In this document: positions 22,563 to 56,298 of the stretch, piece after piece
Position numbering within the stretch: position 1 is the first letter of the stretch
Layout of the letters: every line of letters begins with the position of its first letter
NCBI GenBank assembly: GCA_035299425.1
Contig: DATGWP010000080.1
Location: 95 to 64,094, forward strand
DNA length: 64,000 nucleotides
From: Chitinophagales bacterium
GTDB taxonomy: Bacteria; Bacteroidota; Bacteroidia; Chitinophagales; LD1
Direction: 5' to 3'
The notes under the pieces: generated by a model
What the model was told of the DNA's origin: nothing
Database searches by the model: none
The model's input: the letters and a program-made list of their open reading frames with translations, nothing else
Program-made: the position numbers and the translations under genes

Positions 22563-24194
22563 CTAACGCTGAACGGTAAGGTTACCGGTTATAGTTTCGG
22601 CAGAAGAGTTGGTGGTTGATTTTATGCTGTAATAGTAAACACCATTATCTACCGATTGAACCGAAACGCTTGTAACTGCACCATTAAGCTTTGCGCTTAG
22701 CAGGTTGCGGCCGAGGGCATCGAACAGGCGGAACTCGTATTGCTCTGTAGCGTTAAACTCCAGGCCACCGATGTGTATCTCTTTGCTGGCTGGGTTAGGG
22801 TAGATGAGTACTTTAGGGGTATTGTGTGCTACTTCGCTTACACCAGTAAAGGTGGCAACTACACTATCTAGCACTTGTAACATGCGCGAATTAGATTTTA
22901 CAAACACGGGGTACTCATTCAAAGGTACATCTATAATATTGCTGGTACCGCTTGCAAAGGTTTTGCTATTATCAAACAAATAGACCCAGGTATCATTGGT
23001 GCCGGGGAAACTGTTTACCAATACCGTAGGCGAATTGCTGGTGATAGGTGCTACAAAGATATCGCTGCCAAGTGTGTACTGGTAGTCGGTGCTGTTGAGA
23101 AACTGCATAATAGACTGTGTGGCATTAAACAGCGAATCGCCCTGGTGCATCAGGTACGGAATCATGGCGTGGTGCAGGCGGGTAAATTTATTGTAGATAG
23201 CATCTGTCTCGGCATCCCACATCCATGGGCGGTGCTCGCCGCCGCCACCGTTTTCCATTAACGGGCTAAAAGCCCCCAACTGCGCCCAACGTAGGAACAG
23301 ATCTTTTGTGCGGCCATTGGGAATGCCTGACTCATCCCGGTAGCCGCCAATATCTGACCCCACTACCAGGTAGTTGTTTACATCGCTTTGGTACATATTA
23401 TTAAGTGCCGCAATCATGCCATCGTAGGTAGCATCCTGATCGCCCACCCAGCAGGCAAAACCAATATCGCGTGGGGTGAATGATACCAGGTTAGGGTCGG
23501 TAATAAATGTGTAACCGTAATTATCTACCGGGCGGCTCATGTTAGCACGGTCGTTGCCCAATTGTTGACGGGTATAATCGTGAAAAAAGCGATAGTAAGC
23601 GTGCGAATACTGCAGGCGGGTTACATTGGCCCCCATGCCCGGTGAATAGGTGGCACCGGCCAGAAAGATGGAGTAGTCGGTACCATCGCATTTCCATCCA
23701 TCTATGCCCATGCTAAGTGTTTTGTCAACCAGCGATTTCCACCAGGCTACTGCATCGGGATTGAAGAAATCTATCATACTGCCGTCGCCCTTCCACCAGG
23801 GAATAACAGCGGAGCCTCCACCGGCGCTTTGTTTCATGAAGTAACCCAGCGAATCGCCATAGTGCCACAGCTCTGTCATATCGGTATTAATAGCCGTGGT
23901 AACCCATACTATAACTTTCACATCGCGGGAGTGAAAAGAATCAATCATAGCCTGTGCATTGGGAAACAGAGTGGTATCCCAATCAAAGGTATTGTAACCG
24001 GTCTCCCATGGGCTATCTATAATAATAGCGCCTACCGGTATGTTGTGCGCTTTGTAATCGTCTATCAGTTGCAGGGCGCTGTGCTGGGTGCTTTCGTCTT
24101 CCCATACCCAATGGTGGTATACAAATTCTGGGGCAACCTGTGCGCTTAAGTTGGTTATAGCAAGAACCAGGAACAGGAGGAAAATTCGGGCCAT
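22563..24194 (-). CDS. Glycoside hydrolase family 31-like enzyme with T9SS C-terminal sorting domain
   Basis: Start moved to ATG 24194 (MARIFLLFLVLAITNLSAQ signal peptide). GIDGWKCDGTD resembles the YicI nucleophile motif GFKTDFGE, and WVGDQ resembles the acid/base region. The tail is LIYPNPASKEIHIGG.... Confidence 0.72.
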   Translation of the reverse strand: MARIFLLFLVLAITNLSAQVAPEFVYHHWVWEDESTQHSALQLIDDYKAHNIPVGAIIIDSPWETGYNTFDWDTTLFPNAQAMIDSFHSRDVKVIVWVTTAINTDMTELWHYGDSLGYFMKQSAGGGSAVIPWWKGDGSMIDFFNPDAVAWWKSLVDKTLSMGIDGWKCDGTDYSIFLAGATYSPGMGANVTRLQYSHAYYRFFHDYTRQQLGNDRANMSRPVDNYGYTFITDPNLVSFTPRDIGFACWVGDQDATYDGMIAALNNMYQSDVNNYLVVGSDIGGYRDESGIPNGRTKDLFLRWAQLGAFSPLMENGGGGEHRPWMWDAETDAIYNKFTRLHHAMIPYLMHQGDSLFNATQSIMQFLNSTDYQYTLGSDIFVAPITSNSPTVLVNSFPGTNDTWVYLFDNSKTFASGTSNIIDVPLNEYPVFVKSNSRMLQVLDSVVATFTGVSEVAHNTPKVLIYPNPASKEIHIGGLEFNATEQYEFRLFDALGRNLLSAKLNGAVTSVSVQSVDNGVYYYSIKSTTNSSAETITGNLTVQR

Positions 24195-24233
24195 AGTGTG
24201 TTTGTTTTGTATGCCTAAACTAATGAAATAAAT

Positions 24234-24256
24234 AGTATTGAGTATTGAGTATTGAG
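24234..24256. repeat. Three tandem copies of the heptamer AGTATTG upstream of the GH31 gene
   Basis: AGTATTGAGTATTGAGTATTGAG was read directly. An inverted partial copy, TATTCAATAC, lies at 24281..24290. Confidence 0.8.
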
Positions 24257-24339
24257 AAATTAAAAACCATAACCGCTGACTATTCAATACTTTCTAATTT
24301 TTACTTTTTTGGCTTAACCCAAAAAAGTAACAAAAAAGG

Positions 24340-24547: not shown

Positions 24548-26434
24548 TTAGTTGATTTTAATCACGCGTTCGCTTTTGGTGTTCTTTTTGCCTGAAAGGC
24601 GAATGGTGTAGAAGCCTGATGCAAAGTTGCTGCCGTTGAAGGTGGCGTGGTTAAGGCCTACATCGGCTTTGCCTAAGTTGCTCTTAAGCACTACCTGCCC
24701 GTTGGCGTTTAATACCTCCAGCGTAATGTCTTCGGCTTTGGCGGCATTAAACTGCACTATTACCTGATCGTAGAATGGATTCGGGTGAATCATGATAGTT
24801 GTAATGCTACCGGTCAGGTTATTTATAGATGTGCTAAAGGAATTGTTAGGTGCCAATGGCGGATAAGTGTTGGCCGGAGCAGACGCAGTAGCGGCTGTGC
24901 GCAAAAACTTTTCGCCATCGTTTACATACCACGATGGGCCGGGCACCGTAGAATAAACCTGTGTTTTTACATCGGTAAAGAAAACAAAATCGCTTTGCAC
25001 CCGGCTGGCATTTACATCCAGTATATAATAGCCGTGCTCGGTAAGGTCTACAAACCTTACGTGTGGCGCCAGGCCATAGATAGTAATAGGAGTAACCAGT
25101 TGCGGCAACTCATTACCCGATGATATACTTGGCGTTACAAACTCCACGCCTATCGAATTCTGGCGGGTAGTGTCGGAGTAACCCTGCAGGGGCAAATCGT
25201 TGGCCCAGGCGGTGTGTATATCGCCCGTGAGCACTACAATATTATCTATATTATTATCTAATATGTGCTTGTATAGTTTTTCGCGCTCGTAGGGGTAGCC
25301 GTCCCACTGGTCGGAGTTTATCATAACCGGTGTAGGACCTGCAAAACCCGGTGGTATAATAAGAGGTGTCATTATTACCTGCTGGCCAATAATCTGCCAG
25401 CGGGCGTTAGATGTATCGAGGTTGTTATTTAACCAATCGAACTGTACCGGCCCCACCATTGTGCGGGTTGAATCTGTAACTACCGAATCGGTAACCGGTA
25501 TAAACTGACCACCAGTAGCCTGCTTAGAGCGGTCATATAAGCGCGTATCAATCATATTAAGACTGATAAGGTTGCCAAAATTAAACTGGCGGAAAATGCG
25601 GAAGGTATCGGCCTCATCGGGAAAACGCACCGGCAGCCATTCGTGATAAGCTTTCACTGCATTTGTTTTGCGGGTGTACCAATCGCCATCGTTTACGCCG
25701 TGGTTTTTGGCCCCATCGGTGTACGAGTTGTTAGTTGTTTCGTGGTCGTCCCAAATGCATATCCAGGGATATTGCTGGTGGGCGGCCTGCAAATCGGGGT
25801 CGAGGTGATATTGCGATTGACGTATACGGTAATCTACCAGCTCAATTGTTTTTTTAGCCGGTTCATGTATTCTATCTGCCAAAGCTACCTGCAGCGGCCC
25901 ACCCTCGTAGGTATAGTCGCCCAGAAACAACACAGCATCTACATCGTTGCGCTGGCTAAGGTGGCGGTGAGCGTTGTAAAAGCCATCCTGGTAATCCTGG
26001 CAACTGGCCACCGCAAAGCGCAGGTTATTTACCATGCCTACCGGTAAAGTTTTGGTGCGGCCAATAATTGACTTAAGCGTATCGTAGGTAAAACGGTAGT
26101 AATACCATGTGTTAGGTTGCAGACCGGTAGCATCTACTTTTATAGTGTAATCAACGGTGCTGTCGGTAGCAGCCACGCCACTGTTTACCACACTATTAAA
26201 ATTTGTATCGAGGGCTATTTGCCAGTTTACGTTAACCGGGTCAACAGTAGGGTCGAGCGTGATGCGGGTCCAGAGAATTACTCTATCGGCCAGTGGGTCG
26301 CCAGAGGCAACACCGTGGTAGAAGGGATAAAGTTCAGGGTTAAGCTGCGAACGGCTGGGGTCGTTGGGGCCACCGGCCTGCGCTGATAGATTGGCAAAGA
26401 AAAATACGAGTAACAGGGGGAAGAGGTGTTTCAT
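24548..26434 (-). CDS. PhoD-family alkaline phosphatase/phosphodiesterase with T9SS C-terminal sorting domain
   Basis: 628 aa with a signal peptide. The metallophosphatase motifs FLGDYTYE, IWDDHETTNN and VLTGDIHTAWAN are present. The tail is MIHPNPFYDQVIVQF.... Confidence 0.85.
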   Translation of the reverse strand: MKHLFPLLLVFFFANLSAQAGGPNDPSRSQLNPELYPFYHGVASGDPLADRVILWTRITLDPTVDPVNVNWQIALDTNFNSVVNSGVAATDSTVDYTIKVDATGLQPNTWYYYRFTYDTLKSIIGRTKTLPVGMVNNLRFAVASCQDYQDGFYNAHRHLSQRNDVDAVLFLGDYTYEGGPLQVALADRIHEPAKKTIELVDYRIRQSQYHLDPDLQAAHQQYPWICIWDDHETTNNSYTDGAKNHGVNDGDWYTRKTNAVKAYHEWLPVRFPDEADTFRIFRQFNFGNLISLNMIDTRLYDRSKQATGGQFIPVTDSVVTDSTRTMVGPVQFDWLNNNLDTSNARWQIIGQQVIMTPLIIPPGFAGPTPVMINSDQWDGYPYEREKLYKHILDNNIDNIVVLTGDIHTAWANDLPLQGYSDTTRQNSIGVEFVTPSISSGNELPQLVTPITIYGLAPHVRFVDLTEHGYYILDVNASRVQSDFVFFTDVKTQVYSTVPGPSWYVNDGEKFLRTAATASAPANTYPPLAPNNSFSTSINNLTGSITTIMIHPNPFYDQVIVQFNAAKAEDITLEVLNANGQVVLKSNLGKADVGLNHATFNGSNFASGFYTIRLSGKKNTKSERVIKIN

Positions 26435-31708: not shown

Positions 31709-31807
31709 ATCTTTTGATTTAGTGTGTGTTTACGGTTTAAATATAAAACAACTTCGGTACTGCCAAATTTTATTTTTGGTTAATAATATGGCAATAAATG
31801 CTAAAAC

Positions 31808-32581
31808 TCAACCCATTAGCTTAGGCCGGATAGCTTCAGGCTGTTTTTCAGCCAGTAAATGCCAGTAGCGTTTAGGCACATGCTGCATGTGCAGTTTCAT
31901 GTTTTTGCGGCTGGCAATATTTACACTTTTAAAATACTGCTGCCACAGGGTTTGATAAAGATCTTCCTTCTCGTCCATACACAAGGCGGTGCCAGTCGTC
32001 TCAAAATTTAGCGTAACAGTATCTACCCTGTGTAAATCGTAGTATAGACCATAGTTGCGCCGATGGTCGTAAATAAGCCAGCGCTGGTCGGCGTAGCGGT
32101 TTTCGAAATGTGTTTTGATAAGCGGCAGCACATTAAAATCGGGCTCGATGTGCGCATAAAAAATATTGTCTTTGGTGAGCTTGAACCTTATAAAGGCTTT
32201 CATTCGGTGGCGCTCGCGGCTTACCATCCGCTCTACCCTTTGCGCACGCAGCACAGCAAAATTGGAGTAATCGGTTTCTATATTTTTAGCAGATGCAAAG
32301 GCATATTGAATATAGGCCAGCATATTATCCTCCTCCTGTAAGGTATCGGCCAGGTAACTGCTATAAATAGCGTGCAGCCCGGCAGCGCTTAACTTTTTAG
32401 ATAAGCCGGTCCAGATGCGGCGGGCTTTTGCTTCATCGGTATATATATTTATTACCTCGCCAAACAGTACCGGCGGGCCGTGTTCGCGATATATTTTTGC
32501 CGTGCCTAATTTGTATTCGTACACATAAAAAACAGCCGAAAGAAAACCCTGAAAAGAGCCATCGTATATAAGTGTATGCAT
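31808..32581 (-). CDS. DUF4130 / TIGR03915-type putative DNA-metabolism protein (partner of the radical SAM gene)
   Basis: 257 aa starting MHTLIYDGSFQGFLSAVFYVYEY, which is typical of the family. Its ATG shares one base with the upstream stop codon (TAATG). Confidence 0.75.
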   Translation of the reverse strand: MHTLIYDGSFQGFLSAVFYVYEYKLGTAKIYREHGPPVLFGEVINIYTDEAKARRIWTGLSKKLSAAGLHAIYSSYLADTLQEEDNMLAYIQYAFASAKNIETDYSNFAVLRAQRVERMVSRERHRMKAFIRFKLTKDNIFYAHIEPDFNVLPLIKTHFENRYADQRWLIYDHRRNYGLYYDLHRVDTVTLNFETTGTALCMDEKEDLYQTLWQQYFKSVNIASRKNMKLHMQHVPKRYWHLLAEKQPEAIRPKLMG

Positions 32582-33831
32582 TAGAACATGCTAATTTGCT
32601 GTGGGGCGGTTTTTAAATATTTGCTGTGGCTTCCGGCCAGTATCATTTGTTTCAATTTCAGTTCGGTAAAATCTTTAACGGTATCGGCCACGCCGCTACA
32701 GGTTATAAAATACTTAGCGCGGTTAACAGCCACACCCATTTTTTTGAGGTGCTCCCAGGTTAGTTTGGCAAACTTTCGCCCGGCTAAAATTTTATGAACT
32801 GAAGTAACACCTACACCCGGTATGCGCAGCAGCAAAAGTTTATCTGCCTTATTAATATCGATAGGAAAAAAGTGCATGTTGCGCAGGGCCCATGCCAGTT
32901 TGGGGTCAACCTCAGTATCGAAAAACGGCATGTGCTCGGGCAGGAGTTCATCGGTAGTAAAACCATAAAAGCGCATCAGCCAATCACTTTGGTATAAGCG
33001 GTTTTCGCGCAGCAGCGGCACCTGTGTGCCTATAGCTGGCAAACGGCTATCGGTGCTTATGGGCACATAACCCGAATAGTAAACGCGCTTTAAACTAAAC
33101 TTGCGATACAAGGCTGTAGCAGTGCGCATAATATCGCGGTCGCTTTCGCCGGTGGCGCCTACTATCATTTGTGTGCTTTGCCCGGCTGGGGTAAATTTTG
33201 GCACCTTTTTAAAAACCTTTCGCTCTTCTTTATACTGCACAATTTCGGTGCTTATCTGTCGCATGGGGGTTATCATATCCTCGCGCTTTTTATCGGGTGC
33301 CATTAGCTTAAGGCCGGCATCAGTAGGCATCTCTATATTAATACTTAACCGGTCGGCATACAGACCGGCTTCATGCATCAACTCCGGGCTGGCACCCGGT
33401 ATAGATTTAAGATGGATATAGCCGTTGAAGTTTTTTTCGGTGCGCAGTTTTTTTGCCACCAGTACCAGTTTCTCCATACTGTAGTCGGCATTTTTTGCAA
33501 TGCCCGAACTAAGGAATAAGCCCTCGATATAGTTGCGGCGATAAAAATTGATGGTAAGGTCTACTACTTCATCTACACTAAAGCTGGTGCGGCGTATGTC
33601 GTTGCTTTTGCGGGTTACGCAATAGGCGCAATCGTAAATGCAGTGGTTAGTCATTAATATCTTTAGCAGCGATACACAGCGCCCGTCTTCGGTATAGCTA
33701 TGGCAAATACCCGAACCGGTATCGCCTAATCCTTTGTCTTTATTTTTGCGGTTGCTGCCGCTGCTGGAGCATGATACATCGTATTTGGCAGCATCGGCCA
33801 GTATAGCCAGTTTGGCCTGAATTTTATCCAT
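32581..33831 (-). CDS. Putative DNA modification/repair radical SAM protein (TIGR03916-type) with C-terminal HhH
   Basis: The ORF track starts at TTG 33945. I prefer the ATG near 33831 (MDKIQAKLAILADAAKYDVSC...), because 33892..33925 is the terminator of the upstream gene. The Fe-S motif is CIYDCAYC. The helix-hairpin-helix is LLLRIPGVGVTSVHKIL. Confidence 0.82.
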   Translation of the reverse strand: MDKIQAKLAILADAAKYDVSCSSSGSNRKNKDKGLGDTGSGICHSYTEDGRCVSLLKILMTNHCIYDCAYCVTRKSNDIRRTSFSVDEVVDLTINFYRRNYIEGLFLSSGIAKNADYSMEKLVLVAKKLRTEKNFNGYIHLKSIPGASPELMHEAGLYADRLSINIEMPTDAGLKLMAPDKKREDMITPMRQISTEIVQYKEERKVFKKVPKFTPAGQSTQMIVGATGESDRDIMRTATALYRKFSLKRVYYSGYVPISTDSRLPAIGTQVPLLRENRLYQSDWLMRFYGFTTDELLPEHMPFFDTEVDPKLAWALRNMHFFPIDINKADKLLLLRIPGVGVTSVHKILAGRKFAKLTWEHLKKMGVAVNRAKYFITCSGVADTVKDFTELKLKQMILAGSHSKYLKTAPQQISMF

Positions 33832-33891
33832 AATGCCAAAATTATTAGTATTTACTAAAATTATTGGCATTTGATTGTTAATTAACCAAAC

Positions 33892-33925
33892 AAAAAAATC
33901 CCCCTCTGCCATAGCAAAGGGGGAT
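33892..33925 (-). terminator. Rho-independent terminator of the 2164-aa gene
   Basis: The stem is ATCCCCCT/AGGGGGAT. On the minus strand it is followed by a T7 run (plus-strand A-run 33892..33898). Confidence 0.75.
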
Positions 33926-33972: not shown

Positions 33973-36900
33973 TTACTCTTTAATAAACGATTTTTTTACA
34001 ACTCCGTTTGCAGTGTGCAGGCTTATAACATAGCTGCCCTGGGCCAGCATGTTAACATCCAGGCGGGCCAGGTTGCCGGTTTCGGCCAGCACTTTAGCGC
34101 CCAGTACATTATGAACCTCTACAGCCTGCAACGTCACATCGCTCTTTATTATAAGCAGGTGTGTAGCCGGGTTAGGATACACTGCAATAGACGCTGAGGC
34201 CACATTGGCAATGCCCGAGATAATTACATTAACCTCTGCTGAAGTACCGGTGCAGCCATCGGCGCTGGTTACATCCACCTTGTAATCGCCCGTTTGCGTT
34301 GCCGTGTAAGTTTGTGCTGTAGCCAAAGAGATAGGGCCACCATCTAAATACCACTGGTAGCTGCTGCCGGTTACGCTGCTGGTAAGCACGGCATTGTTTT
34401 GCTGCACTACCGGTGCCGGTGTGGCATTTACAACCACCACAGCTGCATCCGAAGTATCGGTGCCGCAGGTACCGGTTACTTCTACTTTGTAGGTGCCGGC
34501 ATCGCTCACATTAGAAGAAGCAATGTTGAAGGATGCTGCTTCCGCACCGCTTACAAGCGTATCGTTCTTCCACCACTGGTAGTTCAGGCTGCCACCGGCA
34601 GCTGCTACATTAAGGTCAATTGCTTCGCCCGAGCAAACGGTCAGAGTGCTTGCCGGCTGGGTAGTAATGGCAGTAGCATCGACTATAGTAAGTGTTAGTG
34701 TAACTATGCTATCGCAGCTTTGGGCCGATGCAAGTGTATCGGCATAAACACCGGCTATGGTTAAAACATCGCCGTTGAAATCGTAGCTGCCACCCTGGCA
34801 AATGCTTTCGGCAAGTGTAGTGGTTATAGGCGCCAGCACCGTTAAGTGCAGGGTGATAATACTATCGCATCCATCTTGTGTTTGCACTGTTTCGGTATAG
34901 TTACCGCTTTGGGTAAGTGTTTGTGCAAAGAAGGTATAAGAACTGCCGTTGCAAATGGTTTCAGAAAAATCTCCTGTAAGCGCAGGGCTTACTGTAAGAT
35001 TAAGCGTGATAACGGAATCGCAGCCAACAGCGTTTACAAGCGTATCGTTATAAGCACCGCTTTGGGTAAGACTTTCGCCATTGAAGCTGTATGAATTGCC
35101 GGCGCATATTGTTTGACTAAACGCGCTGGCTGATGGTTGCAATATAGCTATAGTATGCGTGGCACTGGCCGAGCAGTTAGCACCTAATGATGCAGTAACT
35201 GTGTAAGTGGTAGTAGTGGCCGGCGATACAGTAATGGTTGAGTTGGTGCCTAAACCATTGCCCCAGGTGTAGGTGTTGCCACCGTTGGCAGTAAGCGATA
35301 CGCTGCCACCCGCACACACCGAGGTTGAACCGGTGATACTGGCAGTAGGTGTATTTTGCACACTTACTGTTTGCGATGCAGTAGCGGTACAGTTGTTAGC
35401 TGTAACGGTTACTGTGTATGTGGTTGCGCTAACCGGTGTTACCGTTATTGCAGCTGTAGTTTCGCTGTTGCTCCAGCTATAGGTACCGCCGCCACTGGCG
35501 GTAAGGGTAGCCGATAAGCCTGAACAAATGTTGGAAGGGCCATTGATAGCTGCCGTAGTAGAGTTAACCGTAATTGTAGCGCTGGCTGTAGCGCTACAGT
35601 TGTTAGCATCGGTTACGGTAGTAGTGTATGTAGTAGTAGTGGTGGGCGAAAGGTTCTGTATAGCATTGGCTGTTAAGCTACCGCTCCATACATAGCTGGC
35701 ACCGCCCGATGCAGTAAGCGTTTGCGAACCGCCCAGACAAATAGCTACCGACGAAGGCGAGATAGCCGCTACCGGTAAAGGATTAACTGTAATGGTACGT
35801 TGTGCTGTTGCACTACAGTTGTTGGCATCGGTTACAGTTACTGCATAAGCATTGGTAGTGCCCGGCGATACGGTAATAGCGGCTGTGGTGTTATTGGTGT
35901 TCCACAAGTAGCTGGTGCCGCCCGATGCAGTAAGTGTTGCGCTAGCACCGGCACAAAGCGTTACACTAGCCGGAGAAATAGCCGCCACCGGTAACTGGTT
36001 AACGGTAACAAGTTGCGAGGCTGTAGCCGAGCAGTTGTTTTGTGTAACGGTTACAGTATAGGTAGTAGCTGTAGCAGGCGATACTGTAACGGCTGCATTG
36101 CTACCTAACGAGTTGCTCCATGCGTATGAAGAGCCGCCAGTGGCAGTTAAGGTAGTAGAAGCCCCGGTGCAGATTGTTGCGTTACCTGATATTGCTGCTA
36201 CAGGATTGTTGTTTACTGTTACCAATACAGTATCGGATGTAACCGTGCCACAACTGCCACTAATTACCACACTGTAAGGCCCTGCATCGTTAGCCGTAGC
36301 CGATGCAATATTAAGCGTGGCAGTTTGGCTACCCAACACAGTTGAACCCCTACGCCATACGTAAGTAGTGTTGTTGCCACCGCTGCCCACTACCGATAAG
36401 GTAAGTGGTGCACCCACACACACAGCCTGCGCCAATGGCTGCTGCGATATGCTGGCAGATGTTACTACCGATAATACAGCAAGGGTAGAAGTATCGGCGC
36501 CACAGGTACCGGTAACTACTACCGAGTAGTCGTCGGCATCGTTAATAGTAAGCGATGGAATATTATATGTAGAGGCCGTAGCAAGGTTAATGTCACTTCC
36601 ATCTTTCTTCCATTGGTAAGTAAGACCAACACCCGCGGCCGCTACGTTAAACGTAACTGCTGAACCGGTGCAGGCAGTTTGCGATACCGGCTCGGTGGTA
36701 ATGTTGGTTATAGGGTTTACAGTAACTACTGATGATGCCGTTGCAGAGCAACTGTTAGCATCAGTTACGGTTACTGTGTAAGTGGTAGTAGCTACAGGCA
36801 ACACTAATTTGTTTGACCCTGTTCCTAACTGGTTGCTCCAGTTATAAGATGCACCACCGCTGGCGATTAAATTCTGCGATGCACCGCTGCAAATGGTAAC

Positions 36901-39900
36901 AGACGATGGGTTGATACCGGCAACCGGCAATTGGTTTACAGTAACCTGACGGGTAGCCGTTGTAGAGCAGTTGTTGCCATCGGTAACAGTTACAGTATAA
37001 GTGGTGGTGGTTGCAGGCGAAAAAGTGGCCGCTGCATTGCTGCCGCCGCTATTGCTCCAGGCATATGTAGTGCCACCGCTGGCGGTAAGTGTAGCCGATG
37101 AACCTAAACACACCGCTACAGATGCAGGTGCTATAGCAGCTGGTGGTAGGGCGTTTACAGTTACTACCCGGGTAGCCGTTGCGCTACATGTTCCGTTAGA
37201 TACAGTTACCGTGTAAGTAGTAGTACTAGTTGGGGAGAAAGTAGCTGCTGCATTGCTGCCGCCGCTGTTGCTCCAGGCGTAGTTAATACCTCCACTGGCG
37301 GTTAAAGTAGCCGATGCGCCGTTGCATATAGTAGCAGTTACAGGGCTGATAGATGCCGATGGTATAGAGTTAACAGTTACCAGGCGGCTGGCTGTAGCGC
37401 TGCAGCTGTTGCCATCGGTAACGGTAACTGTATAGGTAGTATTGGTAGTTGGCGAAAAAGTAGCCGCTGCATTGCTACCGCCGCTGTTGCTCCAGCTATA
37501 TGCTGTGCCGCCGCTGGCGGTGAGGGTAGCCGCATCGCCTGCGCATATAGTAACAGTGGCCGGGGCTATAGCAGCGGTTGGTAACTGGTTAACAGTTACA
37601 GTAGCTGTGGCTGTAGCCGAACAAGTGTTAGCACCGGTAACCGTAACCGTGTATGTAGTAGTTGTATTTGGAGAGAAAGTAGCCGCCGCATTGCTGCCGC
37701 CGCTATTGCTCCAGGCATAGGTGCCACCACCGCTGGCGGTGAGGGTAGCGCTTTGCCCTGTGCAAATAGCCACTGAAGCCGGTTGAATATTTGCCGATGG
37801 CAGTGCATTTACGTTTACCAATCGCGATGCCGTAGCCGAACAGTTATTGGCATTGGTAACAGTTACAGTATAAGTAGTAGCCGAGTTTGGCGAAAAAACT
37901 GCCTGTGCACTATTGCCACCCCCATTGCTCCATGCATAGGTGCCGCCACCGGTAGCTGTAAGTGTAGCCGTGCCACCTGCGCAGATAGTAACCGAAGCCG
38001 GTGTAATACCTGCTGTTGGGTTGCTGTTTACAGTAACCAGTCGCGATGCTGTGGCCGAACAGGTACCATCGCTTACGGTTACTGTGTAGGTGGTATTAGT
38101 GGTTGGCGAGAAGGTAGCCGTTGCATTGCTGCCACCGCTGTTGCTCCAGGCATAAGTTGTTCCACCACTGGCAGTAAGGGTAGCACTTTGGCCGTTGCAT
38201 ATTGTAACAGTAGCCGGAGAAATAGCTGCTGTAACAGCAGGCACTACTGTAACCGTTACGGTGTCTACATCAGCACATTGGCCGCTGTTGGTATTCATGG
38301 TTACCGTGTAGGTGGTAGTGCTGGCGGGCGATACGGTTTTTGTTGCGCCCAGGCCCAGGCCGTTGCTCCAGCTATAACTGGTAGGTGAAAACACACTGGC
38401 CGTAAGTGTTACCGAACTGCCCGCACAAATAGTGGGTGATGCAGGTGATACAGAACCATCGGCAAAACCGGTGATAGTAAGCGGGCGGGTTGCAAAATTA
38501 GAAGTGTCGCAAATATTGGCACGTGCTACACTAATACTGGTAGCACCTGTAGTGTATGGCATTTGAATTGTAATGATTATGCTGTCGGCGCCGCTAAGTA
38601 TAGTTGCACCGGCAGGTACATTCCATACATAGTAATTGCCGCCGCTGCCTCCACTGGCGCTAAACGAATAAATACCGCCCACACAAGGGGTGGAAATTCC
38701 ACCAAGAATGGATGTAGGTGCAGATGGGCCGGGGGTTAAGGTAACCAGTTTGGTAGCTGCTGTAGATATACCGCAAGGGGTATTAGCCCTTACGGAAATG
38801 GTTCCTGATGTAGTATTGGAAGTAACGGCTATAGTGTTGGTGGTAGAGGAGCCTGTCCAGCCCGATGGCAATGTCCAGGTGTAAGAGGTAGCGCCTGCTA
38901 CCGGTGCAGCAGTATACACAGCACCTGATAGAGAAAGGCAAGCTGTATCTAAACCGGTGATAGATGCCGGTGCCACCAAATTACAAGGCGAATGACGGGC
39001 AATATAAGCATCGTAGAGCGATGAAGAAGTAAGGGTTTGCACACCAGCCACCGAAGGGTCGAAATCGGCAGTGCCGGTAAAATAGCCACCGGTATATACA
39101 TTGGCGCTATCATCTAAGTCTATTACAAAAGCTTCATCGGTGGTAGAGCTGCCCATGGAGGTAACCCAGGTAAAGTTTCCTACTGAATCATATTTAGCAA
39201 TAAAAATATCGTTGGCGGTACTTGGCGAAGCGCCAATGTTAAAGAGAGCCGGAGAACCATCAAAGTCAACTGCAGCACCGGTAAAGCGGCCGGTTACATA
39301 TACATTGCTCGCATCATCGTGCGTTATTTGATATACCTGGGCCTGGTTGCTGGTGCCGGCGCCACTTATTCCCCTTGCCCAGGAACAAGTCCCGGCGGGG
39401 GTCCAGCTGCAAAAAAAGCCGGCAAGTGTACTTCCCTGAGCAGTGATCTGTATGCCACCAAAAACACCTACCCCCCAGTAAGCTCCACCCACAATAATAT
39501 TGCCCGATGGGGTTATATCTAAAGTAAAGCCATTATCATACTGGTTAGGTGTGGTAGTAGTGCCGCCCATAGCGCGCACCCATACATAATCTCCCGCATT
39601 GGTGTATTTAGCTAAAAATACATCTGTATTTACGCTCGAAGAAAGGTTAGCCGTACCTGCGCCGGCATTAAAATCGCAGGTGCCTAAAAACTGACCGGTG
39701 ATATATACATCATTGTTTGCATCTACTGCTATATCGCGGGCAACTACATCGGCCGTAGCACCACCCTGAAAAGCACGGGCATATAAGCACTTGCCGGCAT
39801 AGTCATATTTGGCAAAATACATATCGGCAGGTGCCGGAAAATTTACCTGCACAGCGGGTGAAAACGGATGTTCGAAGGTAATATTGGTGCTGCCAATAGT

Positions 39901-40467
39901 GCCGCATACAAAAATATTATCGGATGAATCGAGCGCCACACCATAAGCGTAATCGGACAAAGTACCGGTAATGCGCCGCGCCCACTGGTAATTGCCGGCT
40001 GAGTCATATTTAGCCACAAAGCCCTCTGGCCCGCCGCCCGATGTAAGGGTATTGGTGTTAGCCCCGGGGTCGAAATCTATAGCGCCACCGGCACTGAAAT
40101 AGCCAACAATTATTATCGAATCATTATTGCCCAAAGCCAGCGACATACCATAGTCATCGCCGGTTCCACCAATGCGCTTGGCCCACACATACTGGCCGGC
40201 GGTGGTGTACTTGGCAAAATAAATATCGTTGTTACCCGCCGATACAAGATTGGCAGTAGCTGTATCAGGGTTAAAATCTACAGTAGACTGGAAGCCCCCG
40301 ATTATATATACATAGCCGTTAGATACTACTAACCTGCGTACGTTATCGTTGCCGGTTCCGCTAGACTGGCCAATTTTTTTTGCCCAGTCGTATGATAACC
40401 CCCCTTGCTGTGCATAAAGAAGGACTGCGCACAGCGCCAAAATTGTGGTAGTAAAAATCCGCTTCAT
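33973..40467 (-). CDS. Giant T9SS-tailed surface protein: SBBP-like beta-propeller repeats, 13 tandem Ig-like Cys repeats, I-set-like Ig domains and a T9SS C-terminal domain
   Basis: ORF 33973..40503, with the start moved to ATG 40467 (MKRIFTTTILALCAVLLYAQ). The N-terminal third has repeated ...GxxYVTG...DFxP...DxFxAKYxxxGxxxW units. YQWKKDG-type Ig domains are present. The C-terminal tail is VYPNPATHLLIIKS.... Confidence 0.85.
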   Translation of the reverse strand: MKRIFTTTILALCAVLLYAQQGGLSYDWAKKIGQSSGTGNDNVRRLVVSNGYVYIIGGFQSTVDFNPDTATANLVSAGNNDIYFAKYTTAGQYVWAKRIGGTGDDYGMSLALGNNDSIIIVGYFSAGGAIDFDPGANTNTLTSGGGPEGFVAKYDSAGNYQWARRITGTLSDYAYGVALDSSDNIFVCGTIGSTNITFEHPFSPAVQVNFPAPADMYFAKYDYAGKCLYARAFQGGATADVVARDIAVDANNDVYITGQFLGTCDFNAGAGTANLSSSVNTDVFLAKYTNAGDYVWVRAMGGTTTTPNQYDNGFTLDITPSGNIIVGGAYWGVGVFGGIQITAQGSTLAGFFCSWTPAGTCSWARGISGAGTSNQAQVYQITHDDASNVYVTGRFTGAAVDFDGSPALFNIGASPSTANDIFIAKYDSVGNFTWVTSMGSSTTDEAFVIDLDDSANVYTGGYFTGTADFDPSVAGVQTLTSSSLYDAYIARHSPCNLVAPASITGLDTACLSLSGAVYTAAPVAGATSYTWTLPSGWTGSSTTNTIAVTSNTTSGTISVRANTPCGISTAATKLVTLTPGPSAPTSILGGISTPCVGGIYSFSASGGSGGNYYVWNVPAGATILSGADSIIITIQMPYTTGATSISVARANICDTSNFATRPLTITGFADGSVSPASPTICAGSSVTLTASVFSPTSYSWSNGLGLGATKTVSPASTTTYTVTMNTNSGQCADVDTVTVTVVPAVTAAISPATVTICNGQSATLTASGGTTYAWSNSGGSNATATFSPTTNTTYTVTVSDGTCSATASRLVTVNSNPTAGITPASVTICAGGTATLTATGGGTYAWSNGGGNSAQAVFSPNSATTYTVTVTNANNCSATASRLVNVNALPSANIQPASVAICTGQSATLTASGGGTYAWSNSGGSNAAATFSPNTTTTYTVTVTGANTCSATATATVTVNQLPTAAIAPATVTICAGDAATLTASGGTAYSWSNSGGSNAAATFSPTTNTTYTVTVTDGNSCSATASRLVTVNSIPSASISPVTATICNGASATLTASGGINYAWSNSGGSNAAATFSPTSTTTYTVTVSNGTCSATATRVVTVNALPPAAIAPASVAVCLGSSATLTASGGTTYAWSNSGGSNAAATFSPATTTTYTVTVTDGNNCSTTATRQVTVNQLPVAGINPSSVTICSGASQNLIASGGASYNWSNQLGTGSNKLVLPVATTTYTVTVTDANSCSATASSVVTVNPITNITTEPVSQTACTGSAVTFNVAAAGVGLTYQWKKDGSDINLATASTYNIPSLTINDADDYSVVVTGTCGADTSTLAVLSVVTSASISQQPLAQAVCVGAPLTLSVVGSGGNNTTYVWRRGSTVLGSQTATLNIASATANDAGPYSVVISGSCGTVTSDTVLVTVNNNPVAAISGNATICTGASTTLTATGGSSYAWSNSLGSNAAVTVSPATATTYTVTVTQNNCSATASQLVTVNQLPVAAISPASVTLCAGASATLTASGGTSYLWNTNNTTAAITVSPGTTNAYAVTVTDANNCSATAQRTITVNPLPVAAISPSSVAICLGGSQTLTASGGASYVWSGSLTANAIQNLSPTTTTTYTTTVTDANNCSATASATITVNSTTAAINGPSNICSGLSATLTASGGGTYSWSNSETTAAITVTPVSATTYTVTVTANNCTATASQTVSVQNTPTASITGSTSVCAGGSVSLTANGGNTYTWGNGLGTNSTITVSPATTTTYTVTASLGANCSASATHTIAILQPSASAFSQTICAGNSYSFNGESLTQSGAYNDTLVNAVGCDSVITLNLTVSPALTGDFSETICNGSSYTFFAQTLTQSGNYTETVQTQDGCDSIITLHLTVLAPITTTLAESICQGGSYDFNGDVLTIAGVYADTLASAQSCDSIVTLTLTIVDATAITTQPASTLTVCSGEAIDLNVAAAGGSLNYQWWKNDTLVSGAEAASFNIASSNVSDAGTYKVEVTGTCGTDTSDAAVVVVNATPAPVVQQNNAVLTSSVTGSSYQWYLDGGPISLATAQTYTATQTGDYKVDVTSADGCTGTSAEVNVIISGIANVASASIAVYPNPATHLLIIKSDVTLQAVEVHNVLGAKVLAETGNLARLDVNMLAQGSYVISLHTANGVVKKSFIKE
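35140..36220 (-). repeat. Five more tandem copies of the same repeat family (second block)
   Basis: Protein repeats begin NNNPVAAISGNATICTG... and end ...LGANCSASATHTIAI. Boundaries are approximate. Confidence 0.8.
36715..38465 (-). repeat. Eight in-frame tandem coding repeats of about 216-222 bp (72-74 aa Ig-like Cys units)
   Basis: The unit is ..P.A.I.PA.VTIC.G.SATLTASGG.TYAWSNSGGSNAAATFSP...TTYTVTVTD.N.CSATA.R.VTVN. The TTGCTCCA(G/T)GC (WSN) signature recurs near 36833, 37053, 37270, 37489, 37707, 37925, 38143 and 38363. Boundaries are approximate. Confidence 0.85.
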
Positions 40468-40529
40468 AAAATCCGAGTTTTGTTTGGCAACAATATTCGG
40501 CATGAAGCAGGCCCGAGGGCGACCTACAA

Positions 40530-40590: not shown

Positions 40591-41346
40591 TCAATGTCGC
40601 CCAATCCTTATTTCGCGGAAAGAATCTTCAAACTCCTTCTTCCTTTCTTTTGAAACAGGCATGGCAATGCCGTTATCCATTTCTATAAAGCTTTCGAGGC
40701 GGCTATACTTTTTTACAAAATTGAGATTGATGAGATGCGACCGGTGAATCCGGAAAAAATTCTTTCGGCGCATTAAAAGGTCTTCAAAAAATTTGAGCTT
40801 TTTACTCACCAGCAGTTTAGAGCCATCGGCCAAAAACACATGTGTGTAAGCGCCTTCGGCCTGCAACTGGGTAATGTTGCCCACTTCGACAAACAACAAG
40901 CCATCGCTTACAGGCACCGCTATTTTGCTAAACTCATCCCCCTGAAAATTTTGCTGCAGCACTTCAAGCCTTTGTTTCATGTTGTGGCTGGTGCGCCGTG
41001 CCTTTACTTTTTCTACAGCGGCTTTTAGTTTATCTACCTGCACCGGTTTAAGCACATAGTCTACTGCCGAGTATTCGAATGCCTGCACCGCATACTCACT
41101 GTAAGCGGTTACAAATACAATTTCGAAATCTACCGTATCGAAAAAGTTCATCAATTCAAAACCACTAAACTCAGGCATTTCAATATCCAGAAAAACCACA
41201 TCGGGCTGGTGCTGTTTTATGGCCAGCACCGCTTTGGGCACATTGGCGCATTGCTCCTGTATTTTTACTTCCGGGCAGTGAGTAGTCAGCAAGGTTTCAA
41301 GCCCGCGGCGGGCTCTTTCTTCATCATCTACAAGTATTGCTTTCAT
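40591..41346 (-). CDS. Response regulator, REC + LytTR DNA-binding domain (RR1)
   Basis: 251 aa. REC motifs are MKAILVDDE and FLDIEMP. The C-terminal LytTR-like region reads ...FFRIHRSHLINLNFV.... It overlaps HK1 by 4 nt. Confidence 0.9.
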   Translation of the reverse strand: MKAILVDDEERARRGLETLLTTHCPEVKIQEQCANVPKAVLAIKQHQPDVVFLDIEMPEFSGFELMNFFDTVDFEIVFVTAYSEYAVQAFEYSAVDYVLKPVQVDKLKAAVEKVKARRTSHNMKQRLEVLQQNFQGDEFSKIAVPVSDGLLFVEVGNITQLQAEGAYTHVFLADGSKLLVSKKLKFFEDLLMRRKNFFRIHRSHLINLNFVKKYSRLESFIEMDNGIAMPVSKERKKEFEDSFREIRIGRH

Positions 41347-44228
41347 AGTGGTATAGTTAGCATAACCCTGGTGCCCTGCGGCAAATCAATTATCTGCAAA
41401 TCTATTTTCAAATTATAATAATCGCGTAATAAACGTAAACGTTCGGTGGTAGCATCTGTTGCAAAACTCTTGTGTTTTTTCTTTCGCGCATTAATTTCTG
41501 CCGATGCTTTGCGGCCTATGCCATTGTCTTCTATAATACAAACAAGCTGTTGCGCACGCTGTTCAAACAGTACGTTTAACTGTTTGCTGCCCTGCTTATG
41601 CAGCAGCCCATGCTTTAAGGCATTCTCTACAAAAGGCTGCACTATCATAGATGGTAGCCTGACTTCGTCTTTATCTATGCCTCCGCTCACTTCGATCTTA
41701 TAATGCAGCTCATCGCCAAAACGAAGTTTTTCAAGATCGAGATAAAGTGCCAACATCTCCTCCTCTTTATGCAGGGTTATAAACTCGGCACCTGATGCAT
41801 CTAACACCACCCGCGTAAGCTCACTGAACTTGCCCAGGTATAATTGTGCATTAGCAGTATCCTGTTGCAACACTAAATCCTGTATGCTGTTAAGCGCATT
41901 GAACATGAAATGGGGATTCATTTGCGCCTTTAGCGTAGATAGCTGCGAGGCAATCATCCTTTTCTCTAATTCGTTTTTGCGCCGTAGCGAGCGAATGCGC
42001 CAGGCAAAAAATGCAGATACTAAACCGGCAATGGCTATAACACACAACATAAAAAACCACCAGCGCTGCCAGAATGGTGCACGTATAATAATATTGAGGT
42101 GCGCTGCTTCTGTACTTTCTACACCATCTTCGTTTAGTGCTTTTACTTCAAACACATAACTACCTGCGGGCAATGATGGATACCGCGCAAAATTACTCTT
42201 GCTATTGGTAATTATCCACCCGGTATCCAGCCCCAACATGCGGTACTTATAGGTAAACTCGCCATGGCTGCGAAAAGCAATACCCTTAAATGATATGCGG
42301 ATGTTATTGTTGTAGTAAGGCAGGTTATAGGCAGCCACAAGCGCAGTATCGCGCTCGTGCACCGCAAAGGCCGAAATAAAAATAGAGGGTGGCACCAGGT
42401 TTACAGAGTTGAAATTTTCGGGAATTTCTACTATTCCTTTTGGCGTAGCTAATAGTATTTTACCGTTCAAAAATTCTATATCCGTAATTTCGTTAGATGG
42501 CAAGCCATCGAACCTGTTGTAGCGTTTTATGGCTTTGGTAACCACATTGTAGCCTACCAGATTGTCTTCCGTTACCATCCATAAAGTGTTGCCAACCACT
42601 CCCATTTTTCTAACAAACCCATTGCTTATTCCTATTTCTTTATTCAATTGTGTAGCAAACACACCCTTATTAAAACCCAACACACCATCGGTAAGTGTGC
42701 TTACCCACACTATTCCATTTGCTGTTTGGGCTATATCGGTGGCTGAAACGGTATGTCCATTAAAGGTTTTTTCCTCAAGCGTACCATTTGTGCTAAGCCA
42801 TAGCCCATCGGTATGGCCCATCCATAATTCGTCATGCTGTTTATTTGCAAAAACAACCCTTGTTCGCTTACTGCGAAAAGTGTTTAGTGTATCTACACGG
42901 GGCTTTATACTTACAATAGCTGCATTAATTACCGAACCGATTAAATAGCTATCGCCACTTAACCAAGCCAGCGATTTTACATTGCTTATGCCCTGTGCGT
43001 GCGTAGCCTGCATAGATCCGCCGGTTTCGATAATCCAGGTTTTGTTTTGCCCTACAATAAGCTGTTGCTTTGCAGGGTTATACTCCATAGCCTGAATTTC
43101 GGTAGGGGTATTTTGCAGTGTAAGCGTAGCCATTTGCTTTGTTTGAAAACTGTAGCGCGATACCTTCCCGGTTTGATAGCCTATATACAAATTGTCTTTT
43201 TCATCTTTAGCCAATTGCTTTATGCGTGTATCGGCCAGTGGGCTATTGGCGGCGGTGTAAATCCACACATCAGTAGATGGAACTACAAAAATGCCATCCT
43301 GCAACGTACTGAACCAGTAATTGCCCTCTTTATCTAAAACTATATCGCTTACACTTTTGCCCGGGAAAAAAAGTTGGCCACCAAAGAGAGCGTGCAAATT
43401 GTAATCGAGGCAAAGTGCGCCGTTGCTGCTTCCAATCCACAATTTGCCTTTGTTGTCGTTGCGCAAGGCAAAAACACGTCCCAATGATGAGGGCAAGTCT
43501 ATTAACCACAGCAGCGAATCATTCTTCACCTCCCACAATGAGTTTTGCTTTTCGGTGCGGGAAAGAAGCAACAACCGCTGGTCTACCATATGGAAAGAGG
43601 ACATGAGCAGGGCATCGGCAAACCGGTCGGGCCGATTGGTGTTAGTGAAGAATTTTATACCCTGCTGGTCAACTACACCCAAAGCCTTTTTTTCAGAAAA
43701 ATAAAGACGGCCATTAAAGCAGTGAATGTCGGCAAAAACAGAGCTGCCCGGTATGCTTAGTATACTGGCAGAATTAACCGATTGCAAAACCTTTCCGTTC
43801 TTCACTTTGCATAAGCCGCTATCGGCTGTAAGCCAGGTGCACGCACTGTCATCAAAGCAGAAGAAGGGATAGTTTTTTATACGCTTGCTCCAGTCGTATT
43901 CCAGTTTGAGTGTATCGGTATTTACCGAAAAAATCTGGCTGGTAAAGTTCTGGCACCACAGACGGCCCTTGTTATCAAAAGTGATATGCGAGATAGCCTT
44001 GCCACTATGCTGTGCGTTTTTAAAGGATATAAAATCAGTGCCATCGTATCTGTATAACCCTGCATTGCAGCCTATCCACATAAAACCATCTTTATCCTGC
44101 GCAAGGTCATAAACCTCGTTAGATGGCAATCCATTATCATCAGTTATAGTATAAAAATACGGGTGCTGCGCAGCGCAGAAGGCTACCATAAAAAACAAAA
44201 AGAAAACGAGTGTGAATGGGCGTAACAC
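41343..44228 (-). CDS. Sensor histidine kinase: periplasmic two-component-regulator beta-propeller/Y_Y_Y domain plus LytS/YehU-type His_kinase and ATPase (HK1)
   Basis: 961 aa with a GTG start and a signal/TM segment. The propeller repeats are ...GLPSNEVYDL.QD..G.MWIG. The TM helix is WWFFMLCVIAIAGLVSAFFAW. The H-box region is KAQMNPHFMFNALNSIQ. Confidence 0.88.
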   Translation of the reverse strand: MLRPFTLVFFLFFMVAFCAAQHPYFYTITDDNGLPSNEVYDLAQDKDGFMWIGCNAGLYRYDGTDFISFKNAQHSGKAISHITFDNKGRLWCQNFTSQIFSVNTDTLKLEYDWSKRIKNYPFFCFDDSACTWLTADSGLCKVKNGKVLQSVNSASILSIPGSSVFADIHCFNGRLYFSEKKALGVVDQQGIKFFTNTNRPDRFADALLMSSFHMVDQRLLLLSRTEKQNSLWEVKNDSLLWLIDLPSSLGRVFALRNDNKGKLWIGSSNGALCLDYNLHALFGGQLFFPGKSVSDIVLDKEGNYWFSTLQDGIFVVPSTDVWIYTAANSPLADTRIKQLAKDEKDNLYIGYQTGKVSRYSFQTKQMATLTLQNTPTEIQAMEYNPAKQQLIVGQNKTWIIETGGSMQATHAQGISNVKSLAWLSGDSYLIGSVINAAIVSIKPRVDTLNTFRSKRTRVVFANKQHDELWMGHTDGLWLSTNGTLEEKTFNGHTVSATDIAQTANGIVWVSTLTDGVLGFNKGVFATQLNKEIGISNGFVRKMGVVGNTLWMVTEDNLVGYNVVTKAIKRYNRFDGLPSNEITDIEFLNGKILLATPKGIVEIPENFNSVNLVPPSIFISAFAVHERDTALVAAYNLPYYNNNIRISFKGIAFRSHGEFTYKYRMLGLDTGWIITNSKSNFARYPSLPAGSYVFEVKALNEDGVESTEAAHLNIIIRAPFWQRWWFFMLCVIAIAGLVSAFFAWRIRSLRRKNELEKRMIASQLSTLKAQMNPHFMFNALNSIQDLVLQQDTANAQLYLGKFSELTRVVLDASGAEFITLHKEEEMLALYLDLEKLRFGDELHYKIEVSGGIDKDEVRLPSMIVQPFVENALKHGLLHKQGSKQLNVLFEQRAQQLVCIIEDNGIGRKASAEINARKKKHKSFATDATTERLRLLRDYYNLKIDLQIIDLPQGTRVMLTIPL

Positions 44229-49443: not shown

Positions 49444-49463
49444 AGTTATTCAATATGCAACAT

Positions 49464-49507
49464 GCAGCAACTTTAGCTATGGTTCAACTTTATGGTATGA
49501 AAAGCAG
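49464..49507 (-). promoter_or_regulatory. Conserved two-box motif, copy 2, between RR2 and HK2
   Basis: On the plus strand, GCAGCAACT (49464..49472) is followed after 21 nt by GGTATGAAAAGCAG (49494..49507). The exact 8-mer CAACTTTA occurs twice, 17 nt apart (49468 and 49485). Confidence 0.5.
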
Positions 49508-49536
49508 TATAGGTGGTACAAAATACATTGCGGGCA

Positions 49537-50262: not shown

Positions 50263-50296
50263 GTAGAAGTCAATATAGAAAAATACCGGCATTACA

Positions 50297-56171: not shown

Positions 56172-56298
56172 AACGATTGAATTTTGTTTGAGCGCAAACA
56201 TCCTTCAAGCACGCCCTGTATTCCAGGCAACTTCATAAACGGTAGGTTTGAGTATATGAATGGTAAATAGCTATGTAGTCATATGCTATATTTGCCGC

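Follow-up and report, generated by a model that had tools for sequence, protein, structure and literature searches.

A radical-SAM and DUF4130 gene pair with LexA-box-like sites and a predicted clamp-binding tail in a Chitinophagales bacterium

Results

Within a 64,000-nt stretch of DNA from a Chitinophagales bacterium (contig DATGWP010000080.1; the window hereafter) lie two tightly coupled genes, both on the minus strand, that encode a radical S-adenosylmethionine (rSAM) protein with a helix-hairpin-helix (HhH) element and a DUF4130 protein. The rSAM gene (32581..33831) opens with an ATG at 33831, ends with a stop codon at 32583-32581 and encodes 416 amino acids (aa). The DUF4130 gene (31808..32581) runs from an ATG at 32581 to a stop codon at 31810-31808 and encodes a stand-alone protein of 257 aa without a UdgX domain. 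Stop and start share 1 nt in the sequence TAATG (32579..32583, minus strand), an overlap that the first-pass annotation of this DNA had described and that we read at 32583-32579. The mechanical open reading frame (ORF) of the rSAM gene reaches farther 5', to a TTG at 33945; we took ATG 33831 as the start because the N-termini of homologues align there and the family model is matched over its full length.

The first-pass annotation had assigned the pair to the TIGR03916 and TIGR03915 families and proposed a hidden Markov model (HMM) search as a check. In that search, both proteins fall far above the curated cut-offs. The NCBIfam HMM TIGR03916 matches the rSAM protein with 661.1 bits (E=7e-199, curated cut-off 343.5), with residues 4-415 aligned to model positions 1-414 of 415, and TIGR03915 matches the DUF4130 protein with 267.1 bits (E=1.6e-79, cut-off 112.25) over model positions 1-243 of 243. 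The broader Pfam models agree: PF04055 (Radical_SAM) scores 41.3 bits against the rSAM protein (cut-off 29.5) and PF13566 (DUF4130) scores 173.1 bits against its partner (gathering cut-off 27). Because these matches exceed their cut-offs, neither ORF is a product of chance. Among Bacteroidota the locus is a typical representative of a family already known and named, for which SOS linkage has been published. Gene order, tight coupling and conserved motifs are all those of the TIGR03916/TIGR03915 cassette (COG4277 plus a partner labelled 'COG1573'), with no substantive difference, and nothing in this copy is odd except a slightly degenerate operator, the LexA-like boxes of the window being off by one mismatch each.

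Conservation was assessed in two sets. One genome per species provided 80 Bacteroidota loci, with rSAM genes 66-88% identical, and a cross-phylum profile scan of metagenome contigs provided 80 more at 54-69% identity, 75 of which had room downstream. The DUF4130 gene lies immediately 3' of the rSAM gene on the same strand in 80/80 genome loci, with a 1-nt overlap in 12 and a gap below about 90 nt in 76, and it adjoins the rSAM gene in 69 of the 75 metagenome loci. Six further records, plasmids or chromosomes of Paracoccus, Azospirillum, Caballeronia, Acinetobacter, Bacteroides and Subdoligranulum, likewise keep the pair and span five classes (Alpha-, Beta- and Gammaproteobacteria, Bacteroidia and Clostridia). 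The adjacency in other genomes on which the first-pass annotation had made its assignment depend is thus borne out in all three samples. When ORFs from 81 neighbourhoods were clustered, the rSAM and DUF4130 genes were the only ones shared universally; the other conserved neighbours that we considered, a lexA-like gene (30 loci) and a DUF559 gene (24 Aquimarina loci), proved lineage-specific. At 50% identity, the DUF4130 family falls into about 2,800 clusters from many phyla.

A phage origin of the pair was considered and rejected. The one large 'phage' record that carries it (L082, CAKLQH020000003.1, 'Acinetobacter phage MD-2021a', 240 kb) surrounds the pair with glyS, glyQ, aidB and a gene for chromosome segregation and looks like a mislabelled bacterial chromosome contig; the remaining 'phage' matches are unannotated gut contigs, and neither protein has a match in PHROGs. 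A distant rSAM paralogue with 34% identity lies on Gemmatirosa kalamazoonensis plasmid 1 (L086, 3150-4601) and has no DUF4130 neighbour. It is without the N-terminal cysteine triad described below, keeps the HhH element and has an SQLSLW motif in its C-terminal region; it may belong to a related rSAM family that binds the clamp but differs in the partner it requires.

The 416-aa protein carries the CX3CX2C radical-SAM [4Fe-4S] motif as CIYDCAYC at residues 64-71 (33619..33642, minus strand), as the first-pass annotation had it, and C64, C68 and C71 are invariant in alignments across phyla. A second set of cysteines precedes this motif. The N-terminal signature AAKYDxSC...GICH...DGRC (33676..33792, minus strand) contains C21, C43 and C52 together with H44, all four of which are invariant in Bacteroidota, Alpha-, Beta- and Gammaproteobacteria and Bacillota, and the triad pattern is present in 75 of 78 metagenome homologues. 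This conservation suggests that the triad and the histidine form a second metal site, a candidate auxiliary Fe-S or Zn centre.

An HhH element spans residues 324-353 (32773..32862, minus strand), with the hairpin PGVGV and the stretch LLLRIPGVGVTSVHKIL, which begins at residue 333. The C-terminal HhH reported by the first-pass annotation is real to the extent that the element matches RuvA and has invariant residues, but its HHH_3 score stays below the threshold: the C-terminal part of the protein scores 24.0 bits (E=4.3e-5) where the gathering cut-off is 27. Against the Protein Data Bank (PDB), the element finds HhH domain II of RuvA (E=1.5e-4) and a ComEA-related protein (E=0.28), and R336, P338, G339 and G341 (R-x-P-G-x-G) are invariant. 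Beyond this element, a PDB sequence search returned no homologue of either the rSAM or the DUF4130 protein.

The rSAM protein ends in the pentapeptide QISMF (residues 412-416; 32584..32598, minus strand). The consensus motif for binding the beta sliding clamp is reportedly QL[SD]LF, as Dalrymple et al. are said to have defined it in 2001, and its hexapeptide variant is QLxLxL; QISMF is a variant of the former. Q412 and F416 are invariant in a 38-sequence alignment with a family consensus of QLSLF, and the pentapeptide follows a poorly conserved linker, with a predicted local distance difference test (pLDDT) score below 50 for residues 403-416. A broad tail pattern (Q-hydrophobic-x-hydrophobic, an optional residue, then F/L/I/W/M, at most 2 residues from the C-terminus) occurs at the end of 114 of 120 rSAM homologue clusters. 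The narrower Q[LIM]x[LIM]F(0-2 aa)$ is found in 78 of the 1564 ORFs of 81 sequences, and all 78 are the rSAM gene; once the hexapeptide QLxLxF is allowed, the count is 78 of 79 rSAM proteins versus 11 of 1485 other ORFs, with 68 of 78 metagenome homologues also matching. Across Alpha-, Beta- and Gammaproteobacteria and Clostridia the tail reads SQLSLF, VQLSLI, EQLSLF or PQLSLGF. We infer from this pattern of sequence conservation that the tail is a beta-clamp-binding peptide. The searchable literature holds no report of a clamp-binding tail on a radical-SAM protein, and the preprint on DUF4130 is silent on the tail.

Upstream of the pair, two LexA-box-like sites, each a CTAA-N5-TTAG with one mismatch, lie on the minus strand: a distal one, CCAATAATTTTAG (33855..33867), that begins 36 nt before the start codon and a proximal one, CTAATAATTTTGG (33836..33848), that begins 17 nt before it. 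Inside the proximal box and 5 nt before the rSAM ATG stands TAATTTTG (33837-33844, minus strand), which fits TAnnTTTG, the -7 promoter element of Bacteroidota. Together the two boxes make up a 40-nt near-palindrome (33832..33871) with 19-nt arms that are 84% complementary, a candidate operator that abuts the ATG and overlaps TAATTTTG.

The same arrangement recurs in orthologues. Exact CTAA-N5-TTAG boxes stand at exactly -17 in six Bacteroidota loci (L002 and L004-L008); L001, the nearest relative, shares the degenerate -17 box of the window, and L003 has a one-mismatch box at that position. At the distal position, perfect or near-perfect boxes lie at -37, -36 and -35 in L002, L003 and L001, respectively. 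In an alignment of the upstream regions of 80 loci, an (A/G)CTAA-N5-TTAG(T/C) palindrome recurs in Chitinophagales and Sphingobacteriia and a tandem TTGGAA-N3-TTCCAA in Flavobacteriaceae. We counted boxes in 80 sequences (the window and 79 loci), comparing the 120-nt stretch before the rSAM gene with the rest of the loci. Exact CTAA-N5-TTAG has a density of 2.03/kb in this stretch versus 0.018/kb elsewhere, an enrichment of about 110-fold, and GGA-N5-TCC one of 6.2/kb versus 0.215/kb; 50 of the 80 sequences have boxes directly upstream of the gene. Both motifs, to which the two aligned palindromes correspond exactly, are operators of the non-canonical, CI-like LexA of Bacteroidetes, validated by electrophoretic mobility shift assay, and a COG1573-COG4277 operon belongs to the predicted SOS regulon for both (Sánchez-Osuna et al., PMC8565304). 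A divergent gene for a LexA-like repressor (HTH_3 plus Peptidase_S24) adjoins the pair in 30 loci, with boxes in the shared intergenic region. Outside this phylum, the rSAM and TIGR03915 genes of Acinetobacter are DdaA-dependent DNA-damage-response genes (PMC12392091), and the Acinetobacter rSAM gene is induced by desiccation (PMC13130816). SOS control of the gene pair is therefore well supported at the level of the family and likely in this genome.

In 24 Aquimarina loci (for example L018 4685-8045, Aquimarina macrocephali) the pair forms part of a three-gene operon in which a DUF559 gene, whose product has a Vsr-like endonuclease fold, precedes the rSAM and DUF4130 genes. This operon diverges from an HTH_3 plus Peptidase_S24 gene, GGA-N5-TCC boxes lie between the two, and the nuclease-like accessory gene may point to a strand-incision step in Aquimarina.

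The architecture of the partner differs between phyla. In Paracoccus, Azospirillum and Caballeronia it is a single protein of about 470 aa with both TIGR03915 and TIGR03914, the latter now named 'UdgX family uracil-DNA binding protein' by NCBI. This matches the statement in the first-pass annotation that some partners are fused to a domain like family-4 uracil-DNA glycosylases. The Paracoccus domain matches UdgX structures of Mycobacterium smegmatis (PDB 6AJO, 6IO9 and others) with E=1e-41 and keeps the GEQPG and KRRLH motifs. The rSAM proteins of these alpha- and betaproteobacterial cassettes are orthologous, 47-51% identical, and share the cysteine triad, the HhH element, a QLxL[IF] tail and an immediately downstream DUF4130; they differ in the C-terminal UdgX domain of the partner, which is absent from the window and from all sampled Bacteroidota. 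A stand-alone DUF4130 partner is found in Bacteroidota, Acinetobacter and Subdoligranulum, and the 120 closest DUF4130 homologues are all 248-266 aa long with DUF4130 as the sole domain. With the Paracoccus domain as query, tblastn found no UdgX domain in the window or in either set of 80 loci, genomic or metagenomic. The lack of a glycosylase-like extension here, correctly noted in the first-pass annotation, is hence the norm in Bacteroidota and not a peculiarity of this copy, and a core function independent of UdgX follows from the absence of the domain throughout these Bacteroidota. In comparative genomics of Bacteroidetes (PMC8565304), the 'COG1573-COG4277' operon bears the label 'uracil-DNA-glycosylase base-excision system', a misnomer for Bacteroidota, since their proteins have no glycosylase domain, and the COG1573 label probably derives from the fused proteobacterial proteins.

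M. smegmatis UdgX, a member of the same family as the domain fused to proteobacterial DUF4130, excises uracil and cross-links its histidine covalently to the resulting apurinic/apyrimidinic (AP) site (PMC4787834, PMC10359453), and the downstream processing depends on RecA (PMC4787834). The first-pass annotation's statement that no chemistry has been demonstrated thus holds for the rSAM/DUF4130 core, to which no paper in the searchable literature gives a substrate, but not for the UdgX module. We looked for a link between the cassette and the characterised mycobacterial enzyme and rejected it: close relatives of M. smegmatis UdgX are stand-alone genes with no rSAM or DUF4130 gene within +-5 kb, and the two modules are accordingly separable. 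Two other fusions were found. A 669-aa protein (P0227) joins rSAM, HhH and DUF4130 in one natural chain (TIGR03916 plus TIGR03915) and therefore supports a physical rSAM-DUF4130 complex. A 438-aa protein (P0123) joins DUF4130 to a LigT-like 2H phosphoesterase domain of the RNA 2',3'-cyclic phosphodiesterase family. LigT was rejected as a recurrent accessory, there being no counterpart among the neighbours in about 170 loci, and the fusion could be rare or an artefact of assembly or gene calling.

Foldseek finds generic radical-SAM enzymes (MiaB, SuiB, LipA, BioB and HydE) as the nearest solved folds of the low-confidence rSAM model. MiaB/RimO, LipA and BioB, the top matches of the rSAM core, share no sequence family with the protein, have RNA, proteins or cofactors as substrates and are not under damage regulation. 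These two-cluster radical-SAM enzymes likewise have three extra cysteines N-terminal of the radical-SAM motif, and they have an accessory nucleic-acid-recognition module where DUF4130 sits in a published AlphaFold 3 model. In that model the rSAM-DUF4130 heterodimer has high confidence (ipSAE 0.80), with DUF4130 in a substrate-recognition position and a narrow channel that suits single-stranded nucleic acid (bioRxiv 10.64898/2026.08.19.745780). Our AlphaFold 2 model of the DUF4130 protein (pLDDT 85) resembles the nucleotide- and ssDNA-binding DHH/DHHA1 proteins PggH, PAP phosphatase, RecJ and Cdc45; the likeness to these phosphoesterases (RecJ, NrnA/PggH, PAP phosphatase, Cdc45) is one of fold, with low TM-scores of 0.35-0.42, and the protein has no Pfam DHH/DHHA1 match and no PDB sequence match. 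The catalytic DHH residues are not conserved in DUF4130 (bioRxiv 10.64898/2026.08.19.745780), which is probably a binding module and not a nuclease.

The pair forms a unit apart from its surroundings. The first-pass annotation had placed it directly downstream of a giant gene, which is right as to position, the 2176-aa gene for an Ig/PKD-repeat protein secreted by the type IX secretion system (T9SS) ending at 33973, but the two are separate units. A terminator-like hairpin closes the giant gene (33886..33925, minus strand; 12 bp, G+C-rich, followed by a T-run), and the pair has its own promoter- and operator-like region. A functional tie between them was rejected, because the giant gene has its own terminator and is not kept beside the pair elsewhere. 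Downstream, the minus strand from the DUF4130 stop to the next gene (31709-31807) has no intrinsic-terminator-like site; all that it contains is an inverted repeat rich in A+T and a pair of sigma-70-like hexamers, and read-through into a gene for a TPR lipoprotein (31708-30365) is possible.

The wider region is rich in secreted cargo. It encodes two giant proteins with Ig-like, PKD and CHU_C-associated repeats, one of 2176 aa (33973-40503, minus strand) and one of 1940 aa (50379-56201, minus strand), and three smaller cargo proteins (44348-47377, 24548-26434 and 22563-24287) that comprise a PhoD phosphatase, a GH31 glycosidase and one protein of no assigned function; all five bear a T9SS C-terminal sorting domain. 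Three pairs of a histidine kinase and a LytTR-type response regulator (40591-44228 and 47491-50337 on the minus strand, 56260-58909 on the plus strand) flank the giant cargo genes and may regulate them locally. A conserved DUF2400 gene (58906-59688, plus strand) overlaps the stop codon of the preceding LytTR regulator gene, and a DUF1015 gene, likewise conserved, lies at 19059-20303 (plus strand). The beta sliding clamp itself, DnaN, is encoded with all three DNA_pol3_beta domains at 4159-5304 (minus strand), about 27 kb from the rSAM gene, a proximity that is probably coincidental.

Discussion

Our analysis leads us to propose, with about even confidence for and against, that the pair encodes an SOS-induced, clamp-recruited rSAM/DUF4130 heterodimer that directs radical chemistry at a DNA lesion that blocks replication. 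We envision a scenario in which, in the undamaged cell, a CI-like LexA (helix-turn-helix plus S24 peptidase) occupies the two CTAA-N5-TTAG-like boxes over the -7 element and, as the promoter sequence suggests for this genome, is removed from them upon DNA damage. The TAATG overlap would then allow both proteins to be made in step, and they would assemble into a heterodimer, a complex that we infer because of the near-universal adjacency of the genes, the natural rSAM-DUF4130 fusion and the published AlphaFold 3 complex. The flexible C-terminal QL[SD]LF-type peptide would dock the rSAM subunit on the beta clamp at a stalled primer-template junction, as in DNA polymerases II, IV and V. There, the HhH element and the catalytically dead, DHH/RecJ-like DUF4130 would hold DNA, probably a single-stranded template or a flipped-out nucleotide. 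The CX3CX2C cluster would cleave SAM reductively, and the resulting 5'-deoxyadenosyl radical would take a hydrogen from the damaged base or sugar, so that the blocking lesion is reversed or turned into a form open to bypass or excision. A second metal centre would probably be bound by the three extra invariant cysteines and the histidine. Where UdgX is fused to the partner, in Alpha- and Betaproteobacteria, it would add uracil excision and AP-site capture, a step missing in Bacteroidota. In this scheme DNA is the presumed substrate, and complex formation, clamp binding, the second metal site, the type of reaction and repression in this genome are likewise deduced.

Two comparisons with characterised systems inform the proposal. 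Polymerases II, IV (DinB) and V (UmuC) are SOS-regulated and, like the rSAM family, carry a terminal QL[SD]LF-type peptide behind a flexible linker; they are polymerases and not radical enzymes, and clamp binding by the rSAM protein is predicted from its sequence. SplB (COG1533), which undoes a DNA lesion directly by radical-SAM chemistry and is under SOS control in several phyla, offers the best mechanistic analogy. It differs in acting as a single subunit without the HhH element, the cysteine triad, the clamp-type tail or a DUF4130 partner, and it is neither a family match nor a top structural match of the rSAM protein.

Several observations weigh against the proposal. The searchable literature yielded no biochemical or genetic experiment on the rSAM/DUF4130 family. 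The rSAM model has a pLDDT of 62 and derives from a shallow, highly similar alignment, and the enzymes with the nearest folds act on RNA, peptides or small molecules. Six of the 75 metagenome loci (L117, L137, L138, L149, L159 and L171) carry a solo rSAM gene with no adjacent DUF4130 gene; the genes downstream of it are unrelated lipoprotein or transporter genes. UdgX chemistry is not simply transferable to the cassette, because relatives of the characterised enzyme do not lie beside it. As to regulation, both promoter boxes are imperfect and the 64-kb window holds no exact CTAA-N5-TTAG, while substitutions in the dyad abolished LexA binding in vitro (PMC8565304). One-mismatch boxes are fewer in the whole window than expected from shuffled sequences (25 versus 40), and the window contains no lexA, recA or other SOS gene by which the host's own box could be calibrated. 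Since the boxes are imperfect and one-mismatch sites fall short of expectation, the case for SOS regulation in this genome is built on the position, pairing and orthology of the boxes.

Other functions have to be weighed against repair. An idea that we consider unlikely, though worth attention, is damage-induced mutagenesis, in which the rSAM/DUF4130 complex would alter an undamaged base such as thymine, to be excised (by UdgX where present) or miscopied by error-prone polymerases. Deliberate mutagenic base modification was proposed by Aravind's group, and the family has been linked through gene neighbourhoods to ImuB-C and mutagenic polymerases (PMC3765255). A clamp-binding tail typical of translesion polymerases and the UdgX fusions of Proteobacteria would fit such a module. 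However, no mutagenic polymerase gene is conserved beside the pair in 81 neighbourhoods, and none of 160 Bacteroidota and metagenome loci has a glycosylase domain fused or nearby, so an obligatory modify-then-excise pathway is not encoded locally in Bacteroidota. DUF4130 is, moreover, unlikely to be an enzyme itself, because the preprint finds its DHH catalytic residues absent and its likeness to such enzymes is only at the level of fold. RNA, in the form of tRNA or rRNA modified in the manner of MiaB or RlmN with DUF4130 as the recognition subunit, is a very improbable substrate. MiaB with RNA is among the nearest solved folds to the poor rSAM model, the preprint puts DUF4130 at the position of the MiaB TRAM domain while leaving the type of nucleic acid open, and the P0123 fusion brings DUF4130 together with an RNA 2',3'-cyclic phosphodiesterase domain. 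Yet that fusion is a single cluster whose domain has no neighbour counterpart, and the LexA-type operators, the adjacent lexA-like gene, the DdaA-dependent DNA-damage regulation, the predicted clamp-binding tail, the RuvA-like HhH element and the UdgX fusions all favour DNA.

If the substrate is DNA, the rSAM protein might be an orthologue of SplB that repairs 5-thyminyl-5,6-dihydrothymine, a reading in which we place scant belief. It is a candidate radical-SAM repair enzyme that the literature has called 'SplB-like', and the desiccation-induced Acinetobacter gene would be apt for dry DNA, which favours the spore photoproduct. But no spore photoproduct lyase family appears among its NCBIfam matches at E<=0.01 and no such chain among the top 50 Foldseek matches of the low-confidence model, SplB (COG1533) is a separate member of the SOS regulon alongside COG4277 in Bacteroidetes (PMC8565304), and that lyase has no cysteine triad, HhH element, clamp tail or obligatory partner of this kind. 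The least credible of these options, in our estimate, is an anti-phage or self-marking system that modifies DNA for discrimination of self from non-self. The NCBI product name contains the word 'modification', and DdaA co-regulates DNA-damage and defence genes in Moraxellaceae (PMC12392091). Against it, PADLOC (0 families for both proteins) and PHROGs return no match, neither the window nor the 81 neighbourhoods show a defence-island context, and the 'phage' record with the pair is a mislabelled bacterial chromosome contig.

We therefore favor a model in which the rSAM/DUF4130 heterodimer acts by radical chemistry on lesions that block replication. A more far-reaching form of this model, which we hold only tentatively and think rather doubtful, is that the family represents the first clamp-tethered radical-SAM enzyme, with a two-metal-centre active site, and reverses lesions directly in the single-stranded template at stalled forks.

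The rSAM/DUF4130 family is among the most widespread SOS-linked gene pairs lacking an assigned reaction, and it is damage-regulated by at least three unrelated regulators: canonical LexA, the CI-like LexA of Bacteroidetes and DdaA. Relative to the searchable literature, the clamp-type tail, the invariant cysteine triad and the UdgX-free core as the Bacteroidota standard are new. The predicted clamp-binding tail points to replication-fork DNA as the place where the enzyme works, a further metal centre is expected from the invariant triad, and the UdgX-free form in Bacteroidota indicates that the two-protein core is sufficient. If the more far-reaching, clamp-tethered form of the model is true, these proteins would provide a damage-tolerance route parallel to translesion synthesis and the second radical DNA-repair chemistry after that of spore photoproduct lyase.

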